IMG/VR virus record: IMGVR_UViG_2568526722_000002 | Location: 1 to 54,562 of that record | Reading direction: 5' to 3' (one strand) | DNA: 54,562 nucleotides | Source: a virus | Taxonomy: Duplodnaviria; Heunggongvirae; Uroviricota; Caudoviricetes | Part shown: positions 1 to 12,075 of the stretch, in pieces | Numbering within the stretch: position 1 is the first letter of the stretch | Layout: each line of letters opens with the position of its first letter | The notes under the pieces: model-generated | What the model saw: the letters and a program-made list of their open reading frames with translations, nothing else | The model's database searches: none | Told to the model about the DNA's origin: nothing | Program-made: the position numbers and the translations under genes

Positions 1-771
1 TCAATAAGTACCCTTCTTATTAGGATTCACACTAAATTTCCGTAAAGCATTCCCCGACTTAAGCACTTTTGAAGCCTGCTCATTAGCTGAGGCTGTGAAG
101 GTGCTCTCACCATTTTTAACGCTAACGCTCTTAGAGCACGTTACACGGGCTTTTAGCGCTTCATCTGATAACTCACTTGCCGAATAGCTAAAAAGCTCTT
201 TACAGGTCAGCATAGGGCTTCCAAGATTCGTTGTAGTGTTCCCTGTATTCTTTTTACTGGTAGCACCACCATCATTTGTGGTAGCCGTTTTGCCAGTGGC
301 TGCTGAAATATCAGTTTGCCCTACGATTGAACGAAACTCTACACCTTGGAAGGTCATCTGAATACGAAGACCATTAGCAATGGTATGCTCTTTACTCGCT
401 TTAAACTGAGTAATGATACTATCAGTGATAGATATTCCATCTTTACAAACAATAGTGATGATTTGCTTCTGGTCTCGCCATTGTTCAACCGTAGAAATAA
501 AGGTTTCTACAAGTTGCCCCTGTCTGGTTAATAGAACTGAACCCGTCGAATCAACCACTACAACACCGCTAATAGAGATGGTCTTAGGTGCTCTCTGAAC
601 ATTATCAGTGATAGTTTGCCCCGATTGCATAGCCTGAGTTGTCACCATCATCGGTGAGTCATAGTCCATCTGTTCAGTAGCTGTTAAGGCAAGAAAAGAT
701 TCTACATTATCTCGAAGATGAAAATAGATACCATCTTTACCTGAGTATCTAATTTGCTTTGTGTCAAACAT
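1..771 (-). CDS. phage tail-associated protein encoded just downstream of the tape-measure-like gene (function unresolved)
   Basis: Complete 256-aa ORF with its stop at bases 1-3. Same strand as, and immediately 3' of, the TMP-like gene. I can name no diagnostic motif. Confidence 0.5.
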
Positions 772-944
772 TGTTGTTATTCCTATTCTGTTAAGCGTGA
801 GCTACGTGAAATCTAATTTTTGATGTTGGTATCTGTTCAGAAGAAATCACGTAGCATTCGACTATTCATAGTTGAATCGTCATACTAGATAAAGATTAAT
901 AGATTGCCATGTGTGGCAATAAATATTAGTAGTTCTAACATTGT

Positions 945-3011
945 TTATTCCTCTGGGTAAGCTGAGCTAATCAAGGTATCTTCCTGCATACGATTAATAT
1001 GTGATGTTGTCCTTTCATCAATAACTTTCCCATCAAGTACCGTCTGAGTTGTGATATTGATTGTCTGAGGCTGAATATTTACTGACGGCTTGATAAGCTT
1101 TAAATCTTGTGTGAATGTTTCCACTCGACCTTTCAGATTATTTAATGCTTCAGGTGAAAACTGTGGAACATCTTTTGATTTGCCCTGAACCATAGCCCAT
1201 AAAACAGTGGCTAAAGAGTTCATGTCACCAGTTAATGCTTGGTCTGTGGGTTCCACCTTTGACCTTACAACTTTATCAATTGGATTATCTGACTTACTCA
1301 TCTGACGTTCATAGAACGGTTTGACAATGGCATTAATCACATCAGTTGCCATACCGATAATCACTACTTTGGTAATTGCATCAGCTACAGATAATTTTCC
1401 TTTACCACCTTCAACACTACCGGAACGTGAATTAATTCTTCCTGCTGCTGTATTTGCTACATTTCCAAGCGTGGAAATAGCCCTAATTAAGTTCCAGATA
1501 CCACCTACAGCACCAATACCAGACCTTACAGCGACAATACCAGCAAGTCCCTTTAATGCACTTAACAGGCCATTTGCGATACCATCAGCTACAGCTTTTT
1601 GAGTGTCATTTAATTCTCTGTAAGCAAGGGTCACTCTGTCAAAGAATCCCTGCACTCGGTAGCTAATCGTGGTTAAATCATCAATACCGTTTGACATGCT
1701 TTTCATCAAGTCGCCAAAATGTTCACCAAGATTTTTAGCTTGACCACCCAGTGAATTAAGTAAATTAGTCAGTGACCTTGTAAAGTCTGTTAAACCTTCC
1801 TGTGAACCATCGAACATTAAGGCCAGATTATTATTCCATGAATTACTTAAGCGGCCTAACTGCGTCTGAGTAGAGTTAATAATCTTTTCCCATCCACCAG
1901 CTTTATCAATCATCCTTCCCATTTCAGCGGATACTTTAGGGAGAACATCTTTAGAAAGAACCTTACCGTCTTTCATGGCCTTGTCTAATTCTTCTGTAGT
2001 CATCCCAAGGCTTCTGGCAAATAACTGGAAAGCACCTGCCATTCTGTCACCTAATTGACCACGTAGCTCTTCAGCCTGAATCTTCCCTTTAGAAGCCATC
2101 TGCTCGAAAGCTTTCAGAATCCCGTTAATTTCATCAGTACTTAAACCCATTAATCTGGATGTGCCAATCACATTAGAAAATAGGGATTCTTTCTGGTCTG
2201 TATTCATATCACCAGCACCAGCGGAAAACTTAGCAAAACTGCTTAATGTTTCAATCTGGTCTACACCTGTATTATTAGCAAGATTCTTAACGAAGTCTGT
2301 AGCTCGTTTAGCGCCTTCATCGCCTAATACAAATTGTGCCGCTCGTTGTGATGCTTCTTTTTTCAGACCAACCTCCATAATCTTCCTATAAGCTTCTAAG
2401 GCTGTCTGAAAACTATAAATGGCTGTACCTGCTTTGATTGCACTTGTAGCTAATACATCTAAACCATTTGAAGCATTTTCACTGTGATTGTTTTTGCTGG
2501 TGGTCTTATTAAACTTAGAAAGTGTTTCACGTAGATTTTGATTTAACTTTGCTAACTCACGATTAAAAGCTTCGTTCCCAAGTGTCTTGGATTTACCGCT
2601 TAAGCTGTAATACTGGCTTCTAAAATACTTCTCAAGTAGAGGATTAAAGTCACGAAGCTTGCTCATATTCACGCTATGCGCTGCTGTGATTGCTCTGTTT
2701 CCGCTAATTCGTGGCTGTCTTGGCTGTCTAAGTGGCTTTAAAGTATCCTCAATTTCAGTTTTAATCTTAAACGCTTTAGTGTTTTTAAGACGCTGCTCAA
2801 TCTTGGAAACAGTCTTATCGACATTTCTTTCCATGACCTTGAGAGAATCATTTAAAGGCGTAGGGTTAACTCTGAATGCCTTATTTAGTCGTTTCTCAAT
2901 TCTTGATGCGATTTGCATCGTTTGTTTCTCGGCTTTTTCCAAGCCTTTTAAAACTTTCTGAGAGTTAAAACTTAACTCAATCAGAAAATCATCAACTTTA
3001 AACTGTGCCAT
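945..3011 (-). CDS. tail tape-measure-like protein
   Basis: 688-aa, largely helical ORF. Its core segment ...ELRGQLGDRMAGAFQLFARSLGMTTEELDKAMKDGKV... is typical of tape-measure proteins. The C-terminal third is Gly/Ala-rich and hydrophobic. Confidence 0.75.
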   Translation of the reverse strand: MAQFKVDDFLIELSFNSQKVLKGLEKAEKQTMQIASRIEKRLNKAFRVNPTPLNDSLKVMERNVDKTVSKIEQRLKNTKAFKIKTEIEDTLKPLRQPRQPRISGNRAITAAHSVNMSKLRDFNPLLEKYFRSQYYSLSGKSKTLGNEAFNRELAKLNQNLRETLSKFNKTTSKNNHSENASNGLDVLATSAIKAGTAIYSFQTALEAYRKIMEVGLKKEASQRAAQFVLGDEGAKRATDFVKNLANNTGVDQIETLSSFAKFSAGAGDMNTDQKESLFSNVIGTSRLMGLSTDEINGILKAFEQMASKGKIQAEELRGQLGDRMAGAFQLFARSLGMTTEELDKAMKDGKVLSKDVLPKVSAEMGRMIDKAGGWEKIINSTQTQLGRLSNSWNNNLALMFDGSQEGLTDFTRSLTNLLNSLGGQAKNLGEHFGDLMKSMSNGIDDLTTISYRVQGFFDRVTLAYRELNDTQKAVADGIANGLLSALKGLAGIVAVRSGIGAVGGIWNLIRAISTLGNVANTAAGRINSRSGSVEGGKGKLSVADAITKVVIIGMATDVINAIVKPFYERQMSKSDNPIDKVVRSKVEPTDQALTGDMNSLATVLWAMVQGKSKDVPQFSPEALNNLKGRVETFTQDLKLIKPSVNIQPQTINITTQTVLDGKVIDERTTSHINRMQEDTLISSAYPEE

Positions 3012-3136
3012 TGTTCATATTTCACCTCATAGACTTCGGATAGAAGACTATCTCATATACAAAAAAGGGAGAAACTACCGATATCACTCGATAATCTCTC
3101 CCGTTGATTTTTACCCAACCAATTCTATTAGAAGCT

Positions 3137-3346
3137 TTAATGGTAAACGTAAGAATACATCCCATCATCACCTAAAATCTGTGCGTCACATGGTAATTTA
3201 TCCAAGCACCATGAAGGAATCTTACGTACCTTTGGTTTGTGTGAGGTGATAACTCGACGTTGATTTCCAGTTCGTAGCTTTGGTTTGGTTTGTAACTTTA
3301 AGTTTTCACAAACAGACCGAATAGTCTCTAAACGTTCTTCAAACAT
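3137..3346 (-). CDS. hypothetical small basic protein
   Basis: 69-aa ORF with GAGGTG Shine-Dalgarno upstream of the ATG. Confidence 0.5.
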   Translation of the reverse strand: MFEERLETIRSVCENLKLQTKPKLRTGNQRRVITSHKPKVRKIPSWCLDKLPCDAQILGDDGMYSYVYH

Positions 3347-3368
3347 TAATCACCTCACATATGCATAA

Positions 3369-4073
3369 TTAAATAACCTTACTAAATTCTCGTGGAACAC
3401 TCAAAAAGTCATTGAAGCTACTAATCTGTGCAAGCTCTTGTTTGTATTCCTTAGCGATTTTTTGATGGTCACGAATCAAATTAGCCAGAGTTGATTTCAC
3501 CAAATTAATCTCGGTTTCTCTTACCTTCATCAGTCGCTTTCTAGCCATTTCTTCAAGCTCAGCTTGTGATTTATCAGAAATAATTAAAGTCAGTTTATGT
3601 GGCGCTCTGACAGCTCTTTCTGTACGAACAACTCTTTGGCCTTCTGGTAAATCTGCAATCACTTTACCAATTTCTGAATGGTCATATCCCCAACCGTCAC
3701 GGTCTAGTCTTGTATAATAATCGTAGGTGTTTGTCTGAAGCTCCATCAAAATAGCCATTTCGTCAACTTCATTTTCAAGTTTGGACTGAAGTTTTTCGTA
3801 AACACGATTCATAGCTTTTTGAGAGTCTCGAAGGTCTTTGAAATATTTGCGTTGCAGCTTCAGTTTCAAATCAAGCTCACATTCCTCATTCATCGAAAAA
3901 TCAATTTCAACTCTTGGAATCTCAAATGGTTCTGGTGGAATATATGGACCTTTATTTACTTCGTGTGATTCCCGCCAAGCTCTATCAAAAGATTCACGCA
4001 AAGTTAATTCGTGAATATCAAGTGCACTTGGTCGGCTTTCAATAATCATTTCATTTTCATCACGGATAGCCAT
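3369..4073 (-). CDS. hypothetical coiled-coil protein
   Basis: 234-aa ORF with GAGGAAAGG SD and charged heptad-like sequence. Confidence 0.6.
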   Translation of the reverse strand: MAIRDENEMIIESRPSALDIHELTLRESFDRAWRESHEVNKGPYIPPEPFEIPRVEIDFSMNEECELDLKLKLQRKYFKDLRDSQKAMNRVYEKLQSKLENEVDEMAILMELQTNTYDYYTRLDRDGWGYDHSEIGKVIADLPEGQRVVRTERAVRAPHKLTLIISDKSQAELEEMARKRLMKVRETEINLVKSTLANLIRDHQKIAKEYKQELAQISSFNDFLSVPREFSKVI

Positions 4074-4521
4074 TAATACCTTTCCTCTTCTAAGATAATT
4101 TATGTTTCAGTTTTTAAAAAGCACACCTGACAGCCTGCGAACTTAGAAGAGACTTAAAAGGCGTTTGCCAAGTATGCTTTTTAAAAGCTGAAAAAAGCCC
4201 TAAACATAGGTGATTCGGATATTCATGGAATCATCCTCATCTGTGAAGGGCTTTGGAGGTTTGCTTATAACGTTAACGAAGTTTCAGGAAAAACTTTCTT
4301 TAAAAGCTCTGTTTAAAACTCTTAAAGAAAACGCCCTAACTCATGATTAGGGCAAAGCTGTAAGGGTTCAATAATGAATGATTAAGCACTTTTTGAGATG
4401 ACCTCTCAGACTAAACTGAAAGGCCATGACGAAAAGCATTGCACCTTTCCAACTCAGAATATCCATCCATCGGATTATTGAAAATATGATTTTAGGAAAA
4501 ATTGCTCTTCCTATATATACA

Positions 4522-4550
4522 ATTATGTCATGCTTAAGATTATTTGTCAA
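4522..4550 (-). promoter_or_regulatory. sigma70-type promoter (TTGACA-17-CATAAT)
   Basis: Minus-strand read: TTGACA aataatcttaagcatga CATAAT. It lies ~450 nt upstream of the next start codon at 4073. Confidence 0.55.
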
Positions 4551-4574
4551 CAGCTTTTTAACAGATTGGTAACA

Positions 4575-4652
4575 TCAATTTTTATTTACCGCGTTGCCCA
4601 CCCAGCAACCAACAAATAAACCTAAAGCTGTCCAAGCAATTATTAAGCCCAT
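4575..4652 (-). CDS. 25-aa hydrophobic micro-protein, translationally coupled (TAATG) to the upstream gene
   Basis: MGLIIAWTALGLFVGCWVGNAVNKN. Its ATG overlaps the TAA of ORF 4652-4975. It is below the ORF-track length cut-off. Confidence 0.35.
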   Translation of the reverse strand: MGLIIAWTALGLFVGCWVGNAVNKN

Positions 4653-4975
4653 TAATGCACCACCTTCGAATCCGTAACCAAAACATTGTCAGCGTACAAA
4701 ATTACTATAGCCGCCTTGAGATATTTTTCAGGGCTAACGCTGTATCGGTTAGTTTCCTCAATAATAAGGCGCTTCATGTTTGAGTCGGTAACGGGAAACA
4801 TAAAACGTGGGTCACCAGTTTCAATTTCCTGAATAAAATCTTCAATTGTTTCTGAGTTATCAGCCATTAGCTTTAACAGCCTGTCAAAGTCAATGCTAAT
4901 ACCTGCATCAGTGAAGCTTTGCACCATCATAGCAGTGTCGGTATCAATAAAAATTTGTAATGGGTAACTGTTCAT
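4652..4975 (-). CDS. hypothetical protein
   Basis: 107-aa ORF with AAGGAG SD (ggtgaaaaaggagattttaagaaATG). Confidence 0.6.
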   Translation of the reverse strand: MNSYPLQIFIDTDTAMMVQSFTDAGISIDFDRLLKLMADNSETIEDFIQEIETGDPRFMFPVTDSNMKRLIIEETNRYSVSPEKYLKAAIVILYADNVLVTDSKVVH

Positions 4976-4997
4976 TTCTTAAAATCTCCTTTTTCAC

Positions 4998-5119
4998 CAG
5001 ACCTCCTCAATCGCTCTGTAACGAGCTAAACAGTCTTTTTCAGGGGTAGCCTGTACAGTGGTATTACCCACCCTAAAATAGGGTAGTTTTTTGCGTTAGA
5101 ATGCGATTGAGAGCGTCTG
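4998..5119. repeat. structured repeat element, copy A
   Basis: 5' arm CAGACCTCCTCAATCGC (4998-5014) pairs with 3' arm GCGATTGAGAGCGTCTG (5103-5119). Conserved inner flanks surround a variable hairpin-rich core. A second copy lies at 6653-6751. Confidence 0.7.
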
Positions 5120-5132
5120 AGAAGCTGTTTTT

Positions 5133-5420
5133 CTAATTTCTCTTAAAGTCTCGGACTTGCATAAGATTTTTTGGTCTGGTATCGGCTCTGTTACCATTTC
5201 GATGGATAATTTGCTTATTGGATTGATAGCCATGATAAAGGAACCAGACAACATATTTCACGTAGAAAGTGTATCGGCCTATATTAAATGTTTTGTTGCC
5301 GTAGTCGTCGGTATTTATCGTGACCGACTCTCCATCAGACCAGCACAGGGAATCACTGGATTCATCATAGATAAGGTGTTCTGTAAAATATCGTCTAACA
5401 TCTTCATGCCAAGGTTTCAT
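5133..5420 (-). CDS. HNH_3-like (homing-endonuclease-like) small protein, degenerate motif
   Basis: ...YVVWFLYHGYQSNKQIIHRNGNRADTRPKNL... parallels [29 protein letters not shown] of the HNH gene at 47704-48207. Confidence 0.5.
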   Translation of the reverse strand: MKPWHEDVRRYFTEHLIYDESSDSLCWSDGESVTINTDDYGNKTFNIGRYTFYVKYVVWFLYHGYQSNKQIIHRNGNRADTRPKNLMQVRDFKRN

Positions 5421-5632
5421 AAAACCTCCTCACCCCAATAACCTAATTCAATCTTGTGACGCTCAAACCATTCCGGTTTAACTGCTGTTTTCAGTGCTTC
5501 ATTTGGGCCAATGGCTTTAATGAAAATATCTTTTGAGTTATGGATGTCACCGAATCCGTTTCCTTCAATCAGGAGGTCGGAGATGTAGCGAATCATTTTA
5601 TCTGTGTGGTATTCAAAGGTAACGCATAGCAT
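5417..5632 (-). CDS. hypothetical protein
   Basis: 71-aa ORF whose start and stop overlap its neighbours (ATGA-type coupling). Confidence 0.5.
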   Translation of the reverse strand: MLCVTFEYHTDKMIRYISDLLIEGNGFGDIHNSKDIFIKAIGPNEALKTAVKPEWFERHKIELGYWGEEVL

Positions 5633-5913
5633 TAAACCTCCATCGCTAATTTGTGAATTTTGATACTCATTAGACGGGAAATATCAATTTTAAAGTTGTT
5701 AAGTCCCTTCAAAGTATCTAAAGCGTCCTGAGTAATTCGGATGTGTTTACGACCTTTAGAGACTGGATATTTCAGTAAATCCGACTCAGTGACCTCTTTA
5801 GCAATCGCAAGTTGCATAATAGTTTGATGAGGCAGGCTAGTTGTCTGTTTAATTCGGGTAAGCTCGTTAAAAGCTTCCTCTGAAATACGGGTTAATGTGT
5901 GTCTGCTTTTCAT
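5632..5913 (-). CDS. putative DNA-binding protein (two RHH-like half repeats)
   Basis: Start chosen at MKSRH, preceded by a GGAGG SD. Two similar segments are present: TRISEEAFNEL and IRITQDALDTL. Confidence 0.45.
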   Translation of the reverse strand: MKSRHTLTRISEEAFNELTRIKQTTSLPHQTIMQLAIAKEVTESDLLKYPVSKGRKHIRITQDALDTLKGLNNFKIDISRLMSIKIHKLAMEV

Positions 5914-5914
5914 T

Positions 5915-6466
5915 TTAAAATTCCTCCAAAATATACGGGTCAAACTCAAAGTCTGGTTCACTGGTCGTAAGGCTAATATTGCCCACTTCCACATGATGAT
6001 TGATTGTCTCGATAACTTTATTGCAAATGGTGGCTAAGTTAGCGCAATATTTATCGCTTGGTAGCTCATGGCTTAATCGGGTCGCTTGACGCTGAAGACA
6101 ATTTGTTATTGTGCTTGAGCTAATTTTGTCAATATTTCGTAATAGATAGAAAACTTTCCGGTGATAATTATCCCTTCCAAGACTGCGACAAGTACCGATA
6201 ATTATATCTTCAATTTTTGATGGTAATTGCTCGTAAGAATCAAAGCTCATCAGGAAAGTCTTTAAAGTGTTCTCTTTTTCTTTGCGTGTTGGCATGTGTC
6301 TTACCCGTGGCGTAATGCTACGAATGACCGCTTCAATGTTTCTACGTTCGGATTTGGTAAAGGCTGGGACTTCGTAGCTGGTGGGGGTGTCTGTGTAGCT
6401 GTAACCGTTGTGTCTGTTGCGTCTCTTGGATTCTTCAAGAAACTTTTGAAATTCTCTGTCGTTCAT
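5915..6466 (-). CDS. hypothetical early protein
   Basis: 183-aa ORF, the first gene downstream of the strong minus-strand promoter at 6518-6546. Confidence 0.6.
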   Translation of the reverse strand: MNDREFQKFLEESKRRNRHNGYSYTDTPTSYEVPAFTKSERRNIEAVIRSITPRVRHMPTRKEKENTLKTFLMSFDSYEQLPSKIEDIIIGTCRSLGRDNYHRKVFYLLRNIDKISSSTITNCLQRQATRLSHELPSDKYCANLATICNKVIETINHHVEVGNISLTTSEPDFEFDPYILEEF

Positions 6467-6517
6467 TCATATTCTGACCCTCATAAGATGTTATTATTCT
6501 GTTAACTCATATATACA

Positions 6518-6546
6518 ATACTAGCAGTTTCAAAGACTAATGTCAA
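6518..6546 (-). promoter_or_regulatory. sigma70 promoter TTGACA-17-TAGTAT driving the 6466->4652 operon
   Basis: Minus-strand read: TTGACA ttagtctttgaaactgc TAGTAT. Confidence 0.65.
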
Positions 6547-6553
6547 GTATTTT

Positions 6554-6583
6554 TTAACATTTTATTAACATTTGTGGTATAAT
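6554..6583 (+). promoter_or_regulatory. divergent sigma70 promoter TTAACA-18-TATAAT with TGn extended -10
   Basis: ttaaca ttttattaacatttgtgg tataat. It sits back-to-back with the minus-strand promoter. Confidence 0.6.
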
Positions 6584-6652
6584 GGTCCTATGGGGAGAGT
6601 AAAATATAAAGGCGTGGCCATGTATTTGGTCACATGGTTATTGCATTGCACA

Positions 6653-6751
6653 CAGACCTCTTCAATCGCCCTGTAACGAGTTAAACGACCTCTTCAGGTC
6701 AACTCATAAGGTCAGGTACTTTTTGTGTCAGAATGCGATTGAGAGCGTCTT
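6653..6751. repeat. structured repeat element, copy B
   Basis: CAGACCTCTTCAATCGC ... GCGATTGAGAGCGTCTT, with the same conserved flanks as copy A and a different core hairpin (gacctcttcaggtc). Confidence 0.7.
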
Positions 6752-6764
6752 ACAAGGAAATTTA

Positions 6765-6953
6765 ATGGTAAATCTCCCTCCTGAGCTGGGGTCACCTGAT
6801 GTATGGGCTGGTGGAGGTATTGGACTTATTGCAGGTCTGCTGCTTCGCTATTTCATCGTCAGAGTGTTTATCGTGTTCAGATTGTTTGGTCGTGAATGGT
6901 CGTTTGACCTCAAGGACAGAGGCCGTGAAGACAATCACACAGAACCCCGCTAA
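6765..6953 (+). CDS. possible 62-aa single-pass membrane protein
   Basis: MVNLPPELGSPDVWAGGGIGLIAGLLLRYFIVRVFIVF..., with an AAGGA SD 8 nt upstream. It competes with overlapping ORFs on both strands. Confidence 0.3.
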   Translation: MVNLPPELGSPDVWAGGGIGLIAGLLLRYFIVRVFIVFRLFGREWSFDLKDRGREDNHTEPR

Positions 6954-7066
6954 ACTCCCTCCAAAACCCCCTGTACGAGATGGTATAGGGGTATCTTTAG
7001 CATTTTGTGCTATCCATGAAAAAATAACTTGACAGAACCGGAAAGCTGTATCTATCAAGTATTCAC

Positions 7067-7251
7067 CCTTCTAACAGTAATTTCTAAAAGTTCTTATTTT
7101 TCAATAAGTTGTAATTAGCCATATATAGAGAACTGACAAGTCTCTTCACAGACAACTCTGCAACCTTAACAGTAACTTCTAAAAATGCTTATTTTTCAAC
7201 GAGTTGTAATCACCCAATATATAAGGCTGTCCAGCACCTTCACAGAGAAAC
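7067..7251. repeat. two ~90-bp tandem direct repeats (period ~96 bp)
   Basis: Each unit reads ccttNtaacagtaaYttctaaaa..ttatttttcaaYRagttgtaat..atatataRRg..cttcacaga. A condensed third copy lies at ~9313-9345. Confidence 0.7.
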
Positions 7252-7957
7252 TTCAGAGGTCTTCTTAATCAATCCACTAAGCGGGAGAGAGCGATAACCC
7301 CAGAGAGGGAAGCTCCCTTCTTAATCGGCCTCCTAACCAGTCTTTACAAACCTTGTTCAAGGTAATCACAATAGATTTTTCTTCCCTCGTTCTTCGTGTT
7401 CCTCGGTTTGCCTATTGAGACTTGAAAGACCTCTGTAACTTCCCTCTTAGACAGGGAAGAATAATATTGGTGACACAAGCGAAGCGCCCCTCTAAAAAGA
7501 TTTTTTAGCTATTTTGTTTAAAAACACATCAAACGATACATTTTATTGATTTAGGTCAAAGACAAAAGCATTGACAAAATGGTAAGATTGTTCACATGAC
7601 CTTACTTAACAGACTTTTAAGAGGCTTTGAAACGACCTACTTAACAAGGTCACTACATCTGGTCTTATCGTTCCCTGTCTTCTTGGTAGTTCTGTTAAGT
7701 ATCTTTTCAGGTATCTCTTACAGTCACTGTTAAGATGATACTCTCCCTTCGGGTTATATCGTATCTCTTCCCCCGTTAAACACTCCTTCCTAACAACTTC
7801 ATAGTTATCTGTCAAGTACCTTTGAAGATTCTATCAAGACCTCTAAATCTGACCTGATATAGATGCTGTGAAGGCATGTTCTCTAGGTCTGTGTAGCTTA
7901 CTTAGCGGGAAAAGAGGATATGGTGACCATAGGGGAACCCCTCCTGTTAAAAGTTTC

Positions 7958-7985
7958 TTGATGTTATCATCACAATATGTATAAT
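7958..7985 (+). promoter_or_regulatory. sigma70 promoter TTGATG-16-TATAAT
   Basis: ttgatg ttatcatcacaatatg tataat. Confidence 0.6.
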
Positions 7986-7991
7986 CACCAA

Positions 7992-8152
7992 CTGTACAGA
8001 CACCTTAACGGTTTCTCTACACCTCACTATGGCTAGGTAGGGTATGGTTTAGCTTGGTACGGCTAGGTTAGGTCTGGTTTGGTTAGGTATGGGTGGATTG
8101 TCGTAGCCACGTTAAAAATCGACTTATAGGGACTCTTTCGGGAGTCCTTTTT
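7992..8152 (+). ncRNA. candidate ~160-nt small RNA with GG-dinucleotide repeat body
   Basis: Bounded by the promoter at 7958-7985 and an intrinsic terminator at 8130-8152. No ORF longer than 5 codons. 8031-8096 carries 13 GG/GGG tracts in two ~30-nt units (ggctaggt...). Confidence 0.45.
8130..8152 (+). terminator. intrinsic terminator
   Basis: GGACTC tttcgg GAGTCC followed by TTTTT. Confidence 0.7.
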
Positions 8153-8260
8153 AGTTTGTATAAAATCTGTACAGTAACTTTTCAGAGTCTGAAAATTTTT
8201 ATAAAAAATGACTAGCCCTCTTTGAATCTCATCTTCCCCGAATCTTCGAAAATATCTGTC

Positions 8261-8273
8261 TAGTTGATTCGGT
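8261..8273. repeat. left 13-bp inverted repeat flanking the recombinase cassette
   Basis: TAGTTGATTCGGT is the exact reverse complement of 9119-9131 (ACCGAATCAACTA). Confidence 0.8.
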
Positions 8274-8381
8274 AGAATCTACCTCATGATGTATACCTGC
8301 TAAGTACCCGTCACACCAGCTATGTGACCCCCTTTGCAAAAAAGCCAAATATCAGCTACATCCATGTAACTATTCGGTAAC

Positions 8382-8930
8382 TTATTTAGCAAGTCTGTAA
8401 TAAGTTGCTTTAGAGATTCCTAATTCTTCCTGAATCTGCAACCTCGTTTTACCTTGTGAAATAAGCGTCTGTACAGCCTCTGAAGAAGCTTTTACAGGCC
8501 TCCCCATATGTACCCCTTCAGCTTTAGCACGTTCAATACCAGCCTTTCTACGTTCACTGATAAGGTCTTTTTCAAGGTCAGCTAAACCAGCCATCATAGT
8601 AAGCATTGCTCTACCGATTGGTGTTAATAAGTCGAAACCTTCACGCAAAGAAACAACTCTCACACCTTTAGTCTGTAGTGCCTCCACGTTAGAGAGCACA
8701 TCAACGGTATTACGCCCTAAACGGTCAATAGCTACCACAACTAACGTATCGTCACACCTTACATAGTTCATCATGTCTCTAAAACCATCTCTGCTGGTGG
8801 CCTTTGTAGCTCCTGAGACAGCCTCATCAATAAACCATTTATCGACCTTGTGAACCTTCTCTATCTGTAGTTTCTGGTTGTCTACAGTCTGGTCTTGTGT
8901 TGATACCCTGCAATAACCAATCACCGCCAT
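8382..8930 (-). CDS. small serine recombinase (resolvase/invertase family)
   Basis: MAVIGYCRVSTQDQ... (catalytic Ser motif), ...VVVAIDRLGRN..., and a C-terminal HTH (LGISKATYYRLAK). 182 aa, with AAGGGGGA SD. Confidence 0.9.
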   Translation of the reverse strand: MAVIGYCRVSTQDQTVDNQKLQIEKVHKVDKWFIDEAVSGATKATSRDGFRDMMNYVRCDDTLVVVAIDRLGRNTVDVLSNVEALQTKGVRVVSLREGFDLLTPIGRAMLTMMAGLADLEKDLISERRKAGIERAKAEGVHMGRPVKASSEAVQTLISQGKTRLQIQEELGISKATYYRLAK

Positions 8931-8944
8931 ACATCCCCCTTAGA

Positions 8945-9069
8945 AGTCTCAAAAGTTGGTCTCATAAGTTTAGCTGTCTCACAATCCAAAAACAACCTTT
9001 TGAGACACTTGGAAGGTGCATTCTACCGTTACGTTGAAAGTGTCTCAAAAGGAAGTCCTTTTAAGACTG
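8945..9069. promoter_or_regulatory. res-like cluster of six GTCTCAAAAG-type motifs upstream of the recombinase gene
   Basis: Motifs start at 8945(+), 8957(+), 8974(+), 8997(-), 9041(+) and 9058(-). They form inverted pairs such as TGTCTCA..N..TGAGACA and GTCTCAAAAGGaagtCCTTTTAAGAC. Confidence 0.55.
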
Positions 9070-9118
9070 GTTATGAAGGAGCTATGAGGTTGATTAGGGG
9101 TTGGTACAAGCCCAACTA

Positions 9119-9131
9119 ACCGAATCAACTA
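9119..9131. repeat. right 13-bp inverted repeat flanking the recombinase cassette
   Basis: ACCGAATCAACTA. Related ACCGAATAG copies lie at 8368-8378 (-) and 9479-9491 (+). Confidence 0.8.
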
Positions 9132-9494
9132 TGAAGATTTTAGGAGGGTAACTATAACCATCACTTCCTAACTTTCACATAGCTGATTGTTATCTCTTGC
9201 AACTGTAACGTATGGTGACCAAACATCTATATAGCGTTATATGCTCCTGTATATAGCACTTTTCTAGGAGTCGAGAGAGGGACGACTAACACGATACAGT
9301 TTACCCTGAAAAGAGACTTCACAGATTCTTTATATATTTCAATAAGTTATGATAAAAAGGGACTATACCGATACTGCATAGAATCTGTGTAGAATTGCAT
9401 AGATAGCGCATAAATACACCGTTAAATTGCATAGTCATTCACCTGTTTATGTCCTGTTATTAACAGGTTTCTTAGAAAACCGAATAGACTTCAT

Positions 9495-9505
9495 TCAAGG
9501 GTCAT
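9495..9505 (-). pseudogene. tonB: tonB, first 11 nt only (ATGACCCTTGA), truncated by the AT-rich block
   Basis: Minus-strand ...ctactgaaatgattatgacttcaATGACCCTTGA matches the E. coli tonB leader and start as I remember it. The sequence then diverges (aatgaag versus tttacct). Confidence 0.6.
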
Positions 9506-9585
9506 TGAAGTCATAATCATTTCAGTAGAAAAACCAGGTCTCGATTTTAAATGCAAATAGCAATCATATTCAATAAGGCAAGACG
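9506..9585 (-). promoter_or_regulatory. tonB promoter / Fur-box region (divergent from yciI)
   Basis: The reverse complement reads gaatatgattgctatttgcatttaaaatcgagacctggtttttctactgaaatgattatgacttca, recalled as the tonB upstream region. Confidence 0.45.
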
Positions 9586-9728
9586 ATCAGGATCAGTGAA
9601 AATGTCATTTTTGGCGTAATTACCCTTACTTTATGCATGGCCTTAACAAAGACATCATCTTTCCGTTGCAGATCTTCGCCCTTTCAAATAACGTACTTTA
9701 CAACTTTCCCGAACAAGGAGTTGTGCCC

Positions 9729-10025
9729 GTGTTGTATGTTATTTACGCTCAAGACAAAGCTGATAGCCTCGAAAAACGCCTTTCCGTTCGTCCGGCACAT
9801 TTAGCACGTTTACAGTTACTGCATGATGAAGGTCGTTTGTTGACAGCTGGTCCAATGCCAGCGGTAGACAGTAACGATCCAGGGGCTGCGGGATTTACTG
9901 GCTCAACCGTTATTGCTGAATTTGAATCGCTGGAAGCAGCTCAGGCCTGGGCCGATGCTGACCCGTACGTAGCGGCAGGAGTCTATGAACACGTTTCAGT
10001 GAAACCATTTAAGAAAGTGTTCTAA
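9729..10025 (+). CDS. yciI: YciI-family protein
   Basis: From a GTG start: [98 protein letters not shown]. This matches E. coli YciI (98 aa) from memory. Confidence 0.9.
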
Positions 10026-10143: not shown

Positions 10144-10692
10144 TCAGCTAGCTGGAAACTTTTTATACAGAGTTGAGAGCCCTACTCCATACGTTTTTGA
10201 TACGCTTTGTCGTGATTCACCGGTTGCCATCCGCTCCCCCATTTCCCGCCATTGCTCATCCGTGAACTTAGGCCTGCGACCACCAACTCGCCATTTTGCC
10301 CTGGCTACGGCCAGCCCTGCTAAGGTACGTTCGCTATTAAGATCAGATTCATATTGTGCTGCGGAAAGGATGTTACGAAAGTTATAGCGGCCGCTGGCTG
10401 TTTTGAGATCCACGCCATCGGTAATACTGCGGAAGTTGATACCCTTTTCCTGTAACTGCTGGAACATCAACAGCGCATGCAGAACGTTGCGGCCTATCCT
10501 GTCCAGCTTCCAGACCACCAGTTCATCCCCCGGCTGCATAGTGGCGATCAGCCGTTTTAGAACCGGCCGATTCGATTTCCTCCCGCTGGCATGCTCTTCA
10601 AAAATTTTCTCACAACCCGCTGACTTGAGCGCCGTTAGTTGCAATTCAGTGTCCTGGTGGTTTGTTGATACTCGGGCATAACCGTAAATCAT
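10144..10692 (-). CDS. DNA invertase (Pin/Gin/Hin/Cin family serine recombinase)
   Basis: MIYGYARVSTNHQDTELQ..., VVWKLDRIGRN, INFRSITDG, and a C-terminal ...GLSTLYKKFPAS that resembles Pin ...LSTLYKKHPA. Confidence 0.9.
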   Translation of the reverse strand: MIYGYARVSTNHQDTELQLTALKSAGCEKIFEEHASGRKSNRPVLKRLIATMQPGDELVVWKLDRIGRNVLHALLMFQQLQEKGINFRSITDGVDLKTASGRYNFRNILSAAQYESDLNSERTLAGLAVARAKWRVGGRRPKFTDEQWREMGERMATGESRQSVSKTYGVGLSTLYKKFPAS

Positions 10693-10751: not shown

Positions 10752-10777
10752 ATATTTGAAAGGTTGGTTTGGGAGAA
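10752..10777. other. orphan invertase crossover site (gix/pix/cix-like)
   Basis: The reverse complement TTCTCCCAAACCAACCTTTCAAATAT follows the TTC..AAACC..GGTTT.. pattern of Gin/Pin/Cin sites. It sits at the start of the tail-fibre tip fragment. No partner site is present in the window. Confidence 0.55.
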
Positions 10778-10896
10778 GCGGCAAAACGGGATGTGGGAAC
10801 AGGGGAAAATCAGATACCGGATATGGCTTTTTTTGCCAGTGGTGATGGATGGATGAAATTACCCAACGGTAAAATCCTGCAATATGGTCGAGGTGC
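10769..10896 (+). pseudogene. tail-fibre variable-tip fragment (both ends missing)
   Basis: ...[30 protein letters not shown] is typical of invertible tail-fibre C-terminal segments. The frame runs straight into yecD sequence at ~10897. Confidence 0.6.
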
Positions 10897-11120
10897 GGTT
10901 ACGCCGCCGAGGTATCGATACAATTGTGTTATGTGGGATCTCGACCAATATCGGTGTTGAATCCACCGCCCGCAATGCCTGGGAACTTGGCTTTAATCTG
11001 GTGATTGCCGAAGACGCCTGTAGTGCCGCCAGCGCCGAGCAACACAATAACAGCATTAATCATATCTACCCGCGCATCGCCCGTGTGCGTAGCGTGGAAG
11101 AGATCCTTCACGCGTTATGA
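10897..11120 (+). pseudogene. yecD: yecD (isochorismatase-family) 3' fragment
   Basis: [72 protein letters not shown] matches the C-terminus of E. coli YecD from memory. The N-terminal ~115 codons are absent. Confidence 0.75.
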
Positions 11121-11977: not shown

Positions 11978-12075
11978 GTTTCATCAAAGAGTCGGATCAA
12001 TACTTGATGATGACTTTGTTTTATCTTCCGGTAGCCTCTTAAATTGCTTTTCACACAAATAATTGATATCAATAC

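Follow-up and report, generated by a model that had tools for sequence, protein, structure and literature searches.

A probable serine resolvase with its own res site on a phage-related island at the start of tonB in Escherichia coli

Described small serine recombinase systems

Invertases of the Hin/Gin type need two inverted crossover sites around the segment that they invert, and their hix and gix sites are 26 bp long with a 12+2+12 geometry. Shufflons are built from several inverted crossover sites inside coding segments and depend on a tyrosine recombinase of the Rci type.

Among resolvases, the Tn3/gamma-delta systems, with a res of 114 bp, and the Res/res pair of SGI1 combine a serine recombinase of ~180 aa, carrying a C-terminal helix-turn-helix, with a res site directly upstream of its gene; this res comprises three dimer subsites, with site I distal and site III at the start codon, and a promoter lies inside it (PMC9943657, PMC12217951). 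Six residues of the Tn3 resolvase (Y6, R8, S10, D36, R68, and R71) are crucial to its catalysis (PMC2794168). On the integrative island SGI1, the resolvase/res pair has been shown experimentally to remove tandem island multimers, and the sites within res are helically phased at 4–7 turns (PMC12217951). The res of Sin consists of two dimer sites, with a head-to-tail accessory site II and a site for HU/IHF in the spacer (PMC2428073).

The tonB island and its small serine recombinase

The window (the whole stretch of DNA that was analysed, 54.5 kb) comes from the E. coli chromosome. Its first 9.5 kb, positions 1 to ~9494, form the right-hand part of an ~11-kb island with 39% G+C, a value equal to that of Felix O1 (PMC3185647). 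From 9495 rightward it continues as the usual intergenic region between tonB and yciI, which 5,423 of 5,426 complete genomes contain, and homology with island-free genomes begins at this same position. A full copy of the island lies on a 27-kb stretch of strain TB182A (L001), in the order tonB, a 506-aa large serine recombinase, a Dit-like protein, a tape-measure protein, small ORFs, an HNH endonuclease, the small recombinase, and yciI. Contig L219 of GCA_000492275.1 matches the window in gene layout and, like TB182A, carries both arms of the 13-bp inverted repeat described below. The features of the window that define the gene and the island end are:

8382..8930, minus strand: small serine recombinase, read as a resolvase, 182 aa; Pfam Resolvase and HTH_7 domains
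9479..9507, no strand: attR, the right island junction, with the attP arm ACCGAATAG at 9479-9487 and the core TCAAGGGTCATTG, shared with tonB, at 9495-9507

The original tonB ATG is located within the core TCAAGGGTCATTG, at 9505-9503 on the minus strand. At the other island end of the TB182A copy, beside the intact tonB, the same core occurs together with the inverted arm CTATTCGG. The 506-aa large serine integrase inserted the island into the first codons of tonB. The window contains no tRNA or tmRNA gene, so the attachment site of the island is not a tRNA. The junction also accounts for half of a second inverted pair that had been proposed from the letters of the sequence, with ACCGAATAG at 8368-8378 and 9479-9491. 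That pair dissolves on closer comparison: it extends over 9 bp only, its right member (9479-9487) is the integrase attachment-site arm, the true partner of this arm is CTATTCGG at the other island end, outside the window, and its left member (~8370) is not conserved in close relatives, which have T in place of C.

Parts of the island resemble Felix O1-like phages. One island protein is homologous to gp65 of Citrobacter phage Moogle (67% identical), the tape-measure protein is 30% identical to that of Moogle, and island and Felix O1-like phage share ~95 bp of non-coding DNA at 83–98% identity. The phage non-coding region was also considered as a candidate for the genome termini; the literature gives 'short terminal repeats' for Felix O1 and a headful-type TerL for Moogle, and as these statements are not decisive the candidate was set aside.

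In the 182-aa recombinase, the Pfam Resolvase domain covers residues 3–140 (3.8e-41) and HTH_7 covers residues 143–179, the catalytic domain preceding the helix-turn-helix as in resolvases and invertases. All six catalytic residues of the Tn3 resolvase are identical in the alignment to 5cy1, and they are invariant among 16 members of the recombinase family. Bit scores are 82.6 with Gin invertase, 77.1 with gamma-delta resolvase, 74 with Tn3 resolvase, and 57 with Sin, which places the protein about equally distant from Gin and from the gamma-delta/Tn3 resolvases. The NCBIfam model for IS607 gives 24.9 bits against a cut-off of 110, and the score with the Mpi invertase model lies far under its cut-off. 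A Pin-like invertase of the neighbouring prophage, encoded 1.2 kb away at 10144-10692, is 32% identical to the recombinase.

The PHROGs label for the family of this protein is 'DNA invertase'; the label and the near-equal Gin score count against reading the protein as a resolvase.

Anatomy and conservation of the res site

The gene at 8382-8930, together with the 122 bp just upstream (8946-9067), probably constitutes a serine resolvase with its own res site. Six GTCTCAAAAG-type half-sites occur within these 122 bp, upstream of the start codon, and group as follows, with a promoter-like site that overlaps the outermost of them:

9042..9067, no strand: res site I, predicted crossover site, GTCTCAAAAGGA AG TCCTTTTAAGAC (inverted half-sites, 12+2+12 bp, 26 bp in all); centre at 9054-9055; the sole such palindrome in the window
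8975..9006, no strand: res site II, two inverted half-sites, 32 bp; both half-sites conserved over 13 loci, spacers variable
8946..8968, no strand: res site III, two direct (head-to-tail) half-sites, 23 bp, 13 bp from start to start; ends 15 bp before the ATG
9020..9048, minus strand: promoter-like site of the resolvase gene, with -35 TTGAGA (9048-9043) in site I, a 17-bp spacer, and -10 TAGAAT (9025-9020)

Read in the direction of the gene, the order is site I, a 35-bp spacer, site II, a 6-bp spacer, site III, 15 bp with the ribosome-binding site, and the ATG. The sequence-only reading had counted six motifs upstream of the gene, likened them to the subsites of a res site, and described all of them as inverted pairs. 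The count and the likeness stand; the pairing is right for 9042-9067 and 8975-9006 and wrong for 8946-8968, which is a direct pair. This direct pair, xTTxTGAGAC-N3-CTTTTGAGAC, is found in all aligned loci. The assignment of half-sites to sites II and III is a reading of their spacing, and other groupings of the three half-sites that point in the same direction are possible.

The clustering of the half-sites is non-random. Against 0.56 expected, the full island copy of TB182A contains six matches to the motif when one mismatch is allowed, and four of the six fall in the resolvase cluster. The 26-bp palindrome of site I occurs once in the window, against an expectation of none. Neither the window nor the full island copy yielded a second res cluster or a second site I. 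A single crossover site with flanking accessory sites fits the need of a resolvase and not that of an invertase.

Homologues 63–70% identical to the recombinase were fetched from Klebsiella, Erwinia, Serratia, Buttiauxella, Enterobacter, Mixta, Mangrovibacter, Lonsdalea, and Biostraticola, and from one viral contig. These loci have the same six half-sites upstream of the gene, in the same order and orientation: a 26-bp site I (12+2+12), a spacer of ~35 bp, an inverted site II of ~32 bp, and a head-to-tail pair with a 13-bp offset that ends ~15 bp before the ATG. Site I measures 26 bp in the 10 of 13 aligned loci whose retrieved sequence spans it completely, and the other three agree as far as their sequence reaches. 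Column identity across the 13 loci is 90% in the half-sites versus 65% in the spacers (p = 2e-10). Site I and site II are centred 64 bp from each other, or ~6.1 helical turns, and the spacer of Lonsdalea is 12 bp shorter, giving ~5 turns, so both spacings are within the phased range of 4–7 turns (PMC12217951).

The promoter-like site matches 10 of 12 consensus positions. Its -10 element falls where the spacer between the first two subsites is best conserved, with the core AGAATGC kept in 7 of the 13 aligned loci, and we infer from these matches that 9020-9048 acts as the resolvase promoter. Sites II and III would then fall in the leader of the resolvase transcript, a layout that suggests autoregulation of the gene.

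Comparison with described systems

At the level of sequence, the features given above for Tn3/gamma-delta and SGI1 have counterparts here, from the size and C-terminal helix-turn-helix of the protein to the position of res, the order of its three predicted subsites, and the promoter-like site inside it (PMC9943657, PMC12217951). The proposed job, multimer removal on an integrative island, would also be that of SGI1 (PMC12217951). Compared to Tn3, however, site III is a direct rather than an inverted repeat, sites I and II are separated by 35 bp instead of 22 bp, the half-site GTCTCAAAAG is a sequence of its own, and the carrier is a phage-related island and not a transposon; the protein, too, resembles Tn3 resolvase no more closely than it does Gin.

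The head-to-tail accessory site beside an inverted crossover site recalls Sin and the beta recombinase (PMC2428073). Unlike Sin, this locus has three recombinase subsites, with the inverted site II between the direct-repeat site (8946-8968) and site I, no IHF-type or other architectural-protein site was identified in it, and the similarity of the protein is weaker, at 57 bits. Judged by its half-sites, the res described here appears to be a hybrid of two known designs, with the order of Tn3 and the head-to-tail accessory site of Sin.

The module resembles Hin, Gin, Cin, and Pin in protein size, in fold family, and in having a crossover site of 26 bp built from inverted half-sites of 12 bp. The difference is that only one 26-bp site exists here in 54.5 kb, that accessory subsites flank it, and that no inversion is seen in assemblies.

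Proposed function of the module

The most likely role of the module, by analogy, is autoregulated multimer resolution for the ~11-kb island, for which SGI1 provides the precedent (PMC12217951). Directly repeated copies of res would come from dimers of the excised island or from integration as a tandem array. Resolvase dimers would occupy the three subsites of each copy, the two copies would synapse via their accessory sites, and strand exchange at the centre of site I would then reduce island multimers to monomers. Bound across the promoter and the 5' leader, the resolvase would at the same time repress its own gene.

Resolvase relatives occur in other small phage-related islands with different integrases. 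A Klebsiella island next to proA carries one together with a tyrosine integrase and a capsid-like gene, and a Lonsdalea locus carries one alongside a large serine recombinase.

It is also conceivable, if unlikely, that the recombinase and its motifs have another use for the island: site-specific deletion or fusion involving a partner site that a helper phage or another replicon carries, an aid to excision, or mainly transcriptional repression. The island has no recognisable replication gene, which counts against multimer resolution, and the module adjoins attR, downstream of the displaced tonB promoter. In addition, related islands carry different small serine recombinases at the same position, in either orientation, or none, suggesting an accessory role. 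Against these points, three subsites with accessory sites are a hallmark of topologically filtered resolution (PMC2428073, PMC9943657), no second site I turned up in either the window or the full island, and the resolution of island multimers has a direct precedent (PMC12217951). We retain island multimer resolution as the preferred role of the module.

The 13-bp inverted repeats belong to dispersed hairpin units

The recombinase gene and its res site are bracketed by TAGTTGATTCGGT at 8261-8273 and by the exact reverse complement of this sequence at 9119-9131, as the sequence-only reading had reported. It was also correct that the segment between them holds the 182-aa recombinase as its only gene, to which we add a 46-aa overlapping ORF. 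The promoter-like sequences that it had pointed out just outside the repeats show no enrichment, with 5 present where 4.1 would be expected.

Perfect 13-bp inverted pairs within 2 kb are not rare: block shuffling yields 1.8 of them per window and 0.44 per island by chance, and 30% of island shuffles contain at least one. We nevertheless judge the repeat to be real because the similarity of the arms reaches ~32 bp, with a 20-bp indel allowed, and because the same unit recurs elsewhere. This unit of 30–55 bp consists of TAGTTGATTCGG, a variable hairpin loop, and AATCAACCTCATAG, its end taking the form (AATCAA)CCTCAT(A/G). The window contains three copies:

8261..8292, plus strand: left arm, a short copy of the hairpin unit (TAGTTGATTCGG-hairpin-CCTCATG), inside a block of Felix O1-like non-coding homology (8174-8354)
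9082..9133, minus strand: right arm, a long copy of the hairpin unit with a nested 21-bp hairpin at 9097-9117
4212..4240, plus strand: third copy, in an intergenic gap far from the recombinase, found by a regex scan

Further copies appear and disappear among relatives. TB182A and two other loci (L008 and L222) have an extra unit at ~6617, where the window has the corresponding empty site, and another locus (L217) has one at ~8150, just downstream of a terminator stem. In two related islands (L004 and L006), the units form inverted pairs around DNA that is free of any recombinase. The loop of the right arm is long in E. albertii, short in L008, and absent in the O111-type locus, and the nested 21-bp hairpin is present in some copies and missing from others. 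In its long form, the unit occurs in 211 E. coli genomes, at 1–3 places in each, and is always unannotated. None was found adjoining the resolvase module in the loci from other genera.

The unit is also present in phages. Citrobacter phage Moogle has it three times in a 1.6-kb non-coding region, and a scan of the first 50 kb of Moogle found none. The block around the left arm, 8174-8354, is 74–98% identical to the non-coding region of Felix O1-like phages. A scan of IMG/VR with the 14-mer ATAGTTGATTCGGT returned more than 120 unrelated contigs, as chance predicts for a collection of that size, and was uninformative.

Folding of the copies gives weak to modest stems (z -0.8 to -3.0), with a pairing register that varies from copy to copy, and for these reasons the idea of one consistent hairpin structure was dropped. 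An Rfam scan of 6400-9650 found no RNA family at E values up to 1.

We conclude that the 13-bp bracket is a coincidence of two oppositely oriented dispersed hairpin units that are gained and lost independently of the resolvase. What the units themselves are is a separate question. One possible answer, which we hold only tentatively and think more doubtful than not, is a miniature mobile or recombination-prone element common to lytic Felix O1-like phages and a family of integrative islands in E. coli that parasitise them. If they are a mobile element, they may mark a cargo slot for swapped modules such as the resolvase, or be signals for helper-phage proteins.

The closest analogue, for the arms only, is provided by the PeSL repeats of T4-type phages, which are promoter/stem-loop cassettes flanking variable modules (PMC2839356, PMC4122927). 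Both are short conserved stem-loops, repeated in phage-type non-coding DNA, that bracket segments variable among relatives. Their sequences are unrelated, however; the hairpin units occur in either orientation and with nested hairpin insertions, and a promoter role is described only for PeSL.

Inversion or movement of the bracketed segment

The arrangement had been compared to the segment inverted by Hin, with the recombinase turning over the 870-bp stretch that contains its own gene by crossover at the 13-bp repeats. We consider this highly improbable. In its favour, the two arms match exactly in inverted orientation, Gin gives a slightly better score with the protein than resolvases do, and site I has the 12+2+12 geometry of hix and gix. 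The arms, however, carry no GTCTCAAAAG half-site and no internal dyad, they are copies of a repeat that is also found at unrelated positions, and a 13-bp inverted pair is predicted by chance alone. To the Pin-like invertase nearby, the recombinase has only the 32% identity given above.

Comparison of relatives points the same way. Among the complete E. coli genomes, 157 of 5,426 contain the module (8100-9300) in its native order, and only 9 of 5,426 have the left arm beside the gene, counted with a 141-bp probe that links the left arm to the gene's 3' end and had to be covered to at least 80%; most carriers of the gene lack the left arm. It is cleanly absent from L008 (recombinase 96% identical), from E. 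albertii (L012, 98%), from the O111-type locus L212, and from L224, which encodes the identical protein. A synthetic sequence with 8274-9118 inverted is matched at 80% or more by none of the 5,426 genomes, whose assemblies record the majority orientation only. The identical protein occurs in 10 distinct genomic contexts, one of them a second integration site near rutG/ymdF, and in 10 of 10 its gene is oriented alike with respect to the rest of the island genes. The inverted versions that the sequence-only reading had suggested seeking among relatives are accordingly not seen, and its Hin-like segment finds no counterpart in these genomes.

The opposite-facing recombinase that L005 and L007 have between the same flanks was examined as a candidate inversion and rejected, as it is 37% identical and belongs to a different family with upstream motifs of its own. 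A BLAST hint that half of site I had been kept in L004, as the footprint of a crossover, led on inspection to no convincing half-site. A tblastn search of the recombinase-free islands L004 and L006 found no remnants of a recombinase.

A shufflon-like switch, another suggestion of the sequence-only reading, does not fit a recombinase of the serine type, repeats that lie in non-coding DNA, and the lack of alternative coding segments between them. Its remaining alternative, a self-contained resolvase cassette, is the one that fits. The evidence favours the very outcome that it had named as speaking against inversion, namely a plain res for dimer resolution, with the 13-bp repeats not involved.

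We give least credence of all to a tiny transposon or IS-like cassette moved by its own serine recombinase, for which the 13-bp repeats would be the ends: although terminal inverted repeats surround a single recombinase gene, and related islands hold a different recombinase or none between the same flanks, no target-site duplication lies beside the arms, the variable cargo is limited at ~8355 and ~9130-9215 and not by the left arm at 8261, the gene stays put in relatives without that arm, the match to an IS607-type serine transposase is weak, the domains are ordered as in resolvases and invertases, the alternative recombinase of L007 is too divergent (37%) to be other than a different module, and the unit 8261-9131 is absent outside these islands. 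A serine resolvase with its own res remains the reading that we prefer for the segment.

Significance

The annotation 'DNA invertase', a likely error, is here corrected to a resolvase with a clearly delimited res. The design of this res is slightly unusual, and its 26-bp site I with accessory sites could serve as an orthogonal resolution system. The resolvase finding itself changes little; the more unusual and more interesting object is the island.

A literature search found no published description of this small island family, which is apparently undescribed. Its members, each brought in by a large serine integrase, combine tail genes and non-coding DNA common to strictly lytic Felix O1-like phages with integration at the start of tonB, where they replace the promoter region, and with a hairpin repeat that is polymorphic in its presence and absence. 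If it is true that these islands are satellites of Felix O1-like phages, or defences against them, the family would bear on phage therapy and on the phages used for typing Salmonella and E. coli.

Integration of the island in tonB

The island is approximately 11 kb long with a G+C content of 39%; its right-hand 9.5 kb occupies positions 1–9494 of the window, and it is present as a full copy in Escherichia coli strain TB182A (L001, 3739 to about 14926). Its insertion point lies in the first codons of tonB, at the core TCAAGGGTCATTG (window 9495–9600; L001 3690–3830). What now lies upstream of the intact tonB ORF is island DNA, in which a Fur-box-like sequence, TTGATTATCATTT, is found. The original tonB promoter (9573–9544, minus strand) is left at the right junction, where it now faces the island interior, in the direction of res and the resolvase gene.

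To the right of yciI is a second small serine recombinase, 32% identical to the resolvase, adjoined by a short ORF:

10144–10692, minus strand, Pin/Gin-like small serine recombinase
10769–10960, plus strand, short ORF adjoining the Pin/Gin-like recombinase

This recombinase is part of the neighbouring prophage, which is higher in G+C, and we suspect that it marks a putative tail-fibre inversion module of that prophage.

Variable hairpin units and non-coding DNA

Near-identical islands differ in the presence or absence of the hairpin unit, a dispersed repeat of 30–55 bp, in at least four independent cases. These differences and the nested hairpin involve the following positions:

Window, ~6617
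Window, ~8150
Window, 8261–8292
Window, 9097–9117 (nested 21-bp hairpin)
L001 (strain TB182A), 12003–12049
L217 (a related island locus), ~3806

One insertion site is immediately downstream of a terminator stem, and the loops of some units contain a nested 21-bp hairpin. In its behaviour the hairpin unit resembles a miniature mobile palindromic element.

At 6560–6600 the plus strand carries TGGTATAAT, a strong promoter-like sequence of the extended −10 type, which faces ~1.7 kb of mostly non-coding DNA (6600–8150) bounded by the terminator at 8128–8149. This arrangement suggests that a long transcript, either non-coding or encoding small ORFs, runs counter to the island genes.

Directly left of the strong terminator-like hairpin (8128–8149), GGTTAGG/GGCTAGG-type repeats recur about every 10 bp (8028–8095). 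This array could represent iterons or intrinsically bent DNA, and it is also found in related islands (L004, 1440–1500). Two further features of the non-coding DNA surrounding the resolvase module lie at 7068–7250, 9300–9390, and 8159–8188. These are two ~85-bp tandem repeats (7068–7250; cagtaa[tc]ttctaaaa...ttcaa[tc][ag]agttgtaat...) and an inverted pair, I1, whose 30-nt blocks near 8159–8188 and 9303–9332 are 77% complementary.

Relationship to other islands and to Felix O1-like phages

A resolvase homologue, 65% identical, occurs in Klebsiella (L213–L215, around locus position 10001) within a ~12-kb island adjoining proBA. Other contents of that island include a tyrosine integrase along with a Phage_cap_E-like gene, and the resolvase/res module is thus a recurrent component of different small phage-related islands.

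We found no paper describing the ~11-kb tonB island, which lacks capsid and terminase genes as well as any recognisable gene for replication. Its products include an HNH endonuclease, a large serine integrase of 506 aa, a Dit-like protein 67% identical to gp65 of the Felix O1-like Citrobacter phage Moogle and a tape-measure protein 30% identical to its Moogle counterpart. Moreover, ~95 bp of island non-coding DNA is 83–98% identical to a non-coding region of Felix O1-like phages. The island looks like an element that either exploits lytic Felix O1-like phages as a satellite or defends against them.
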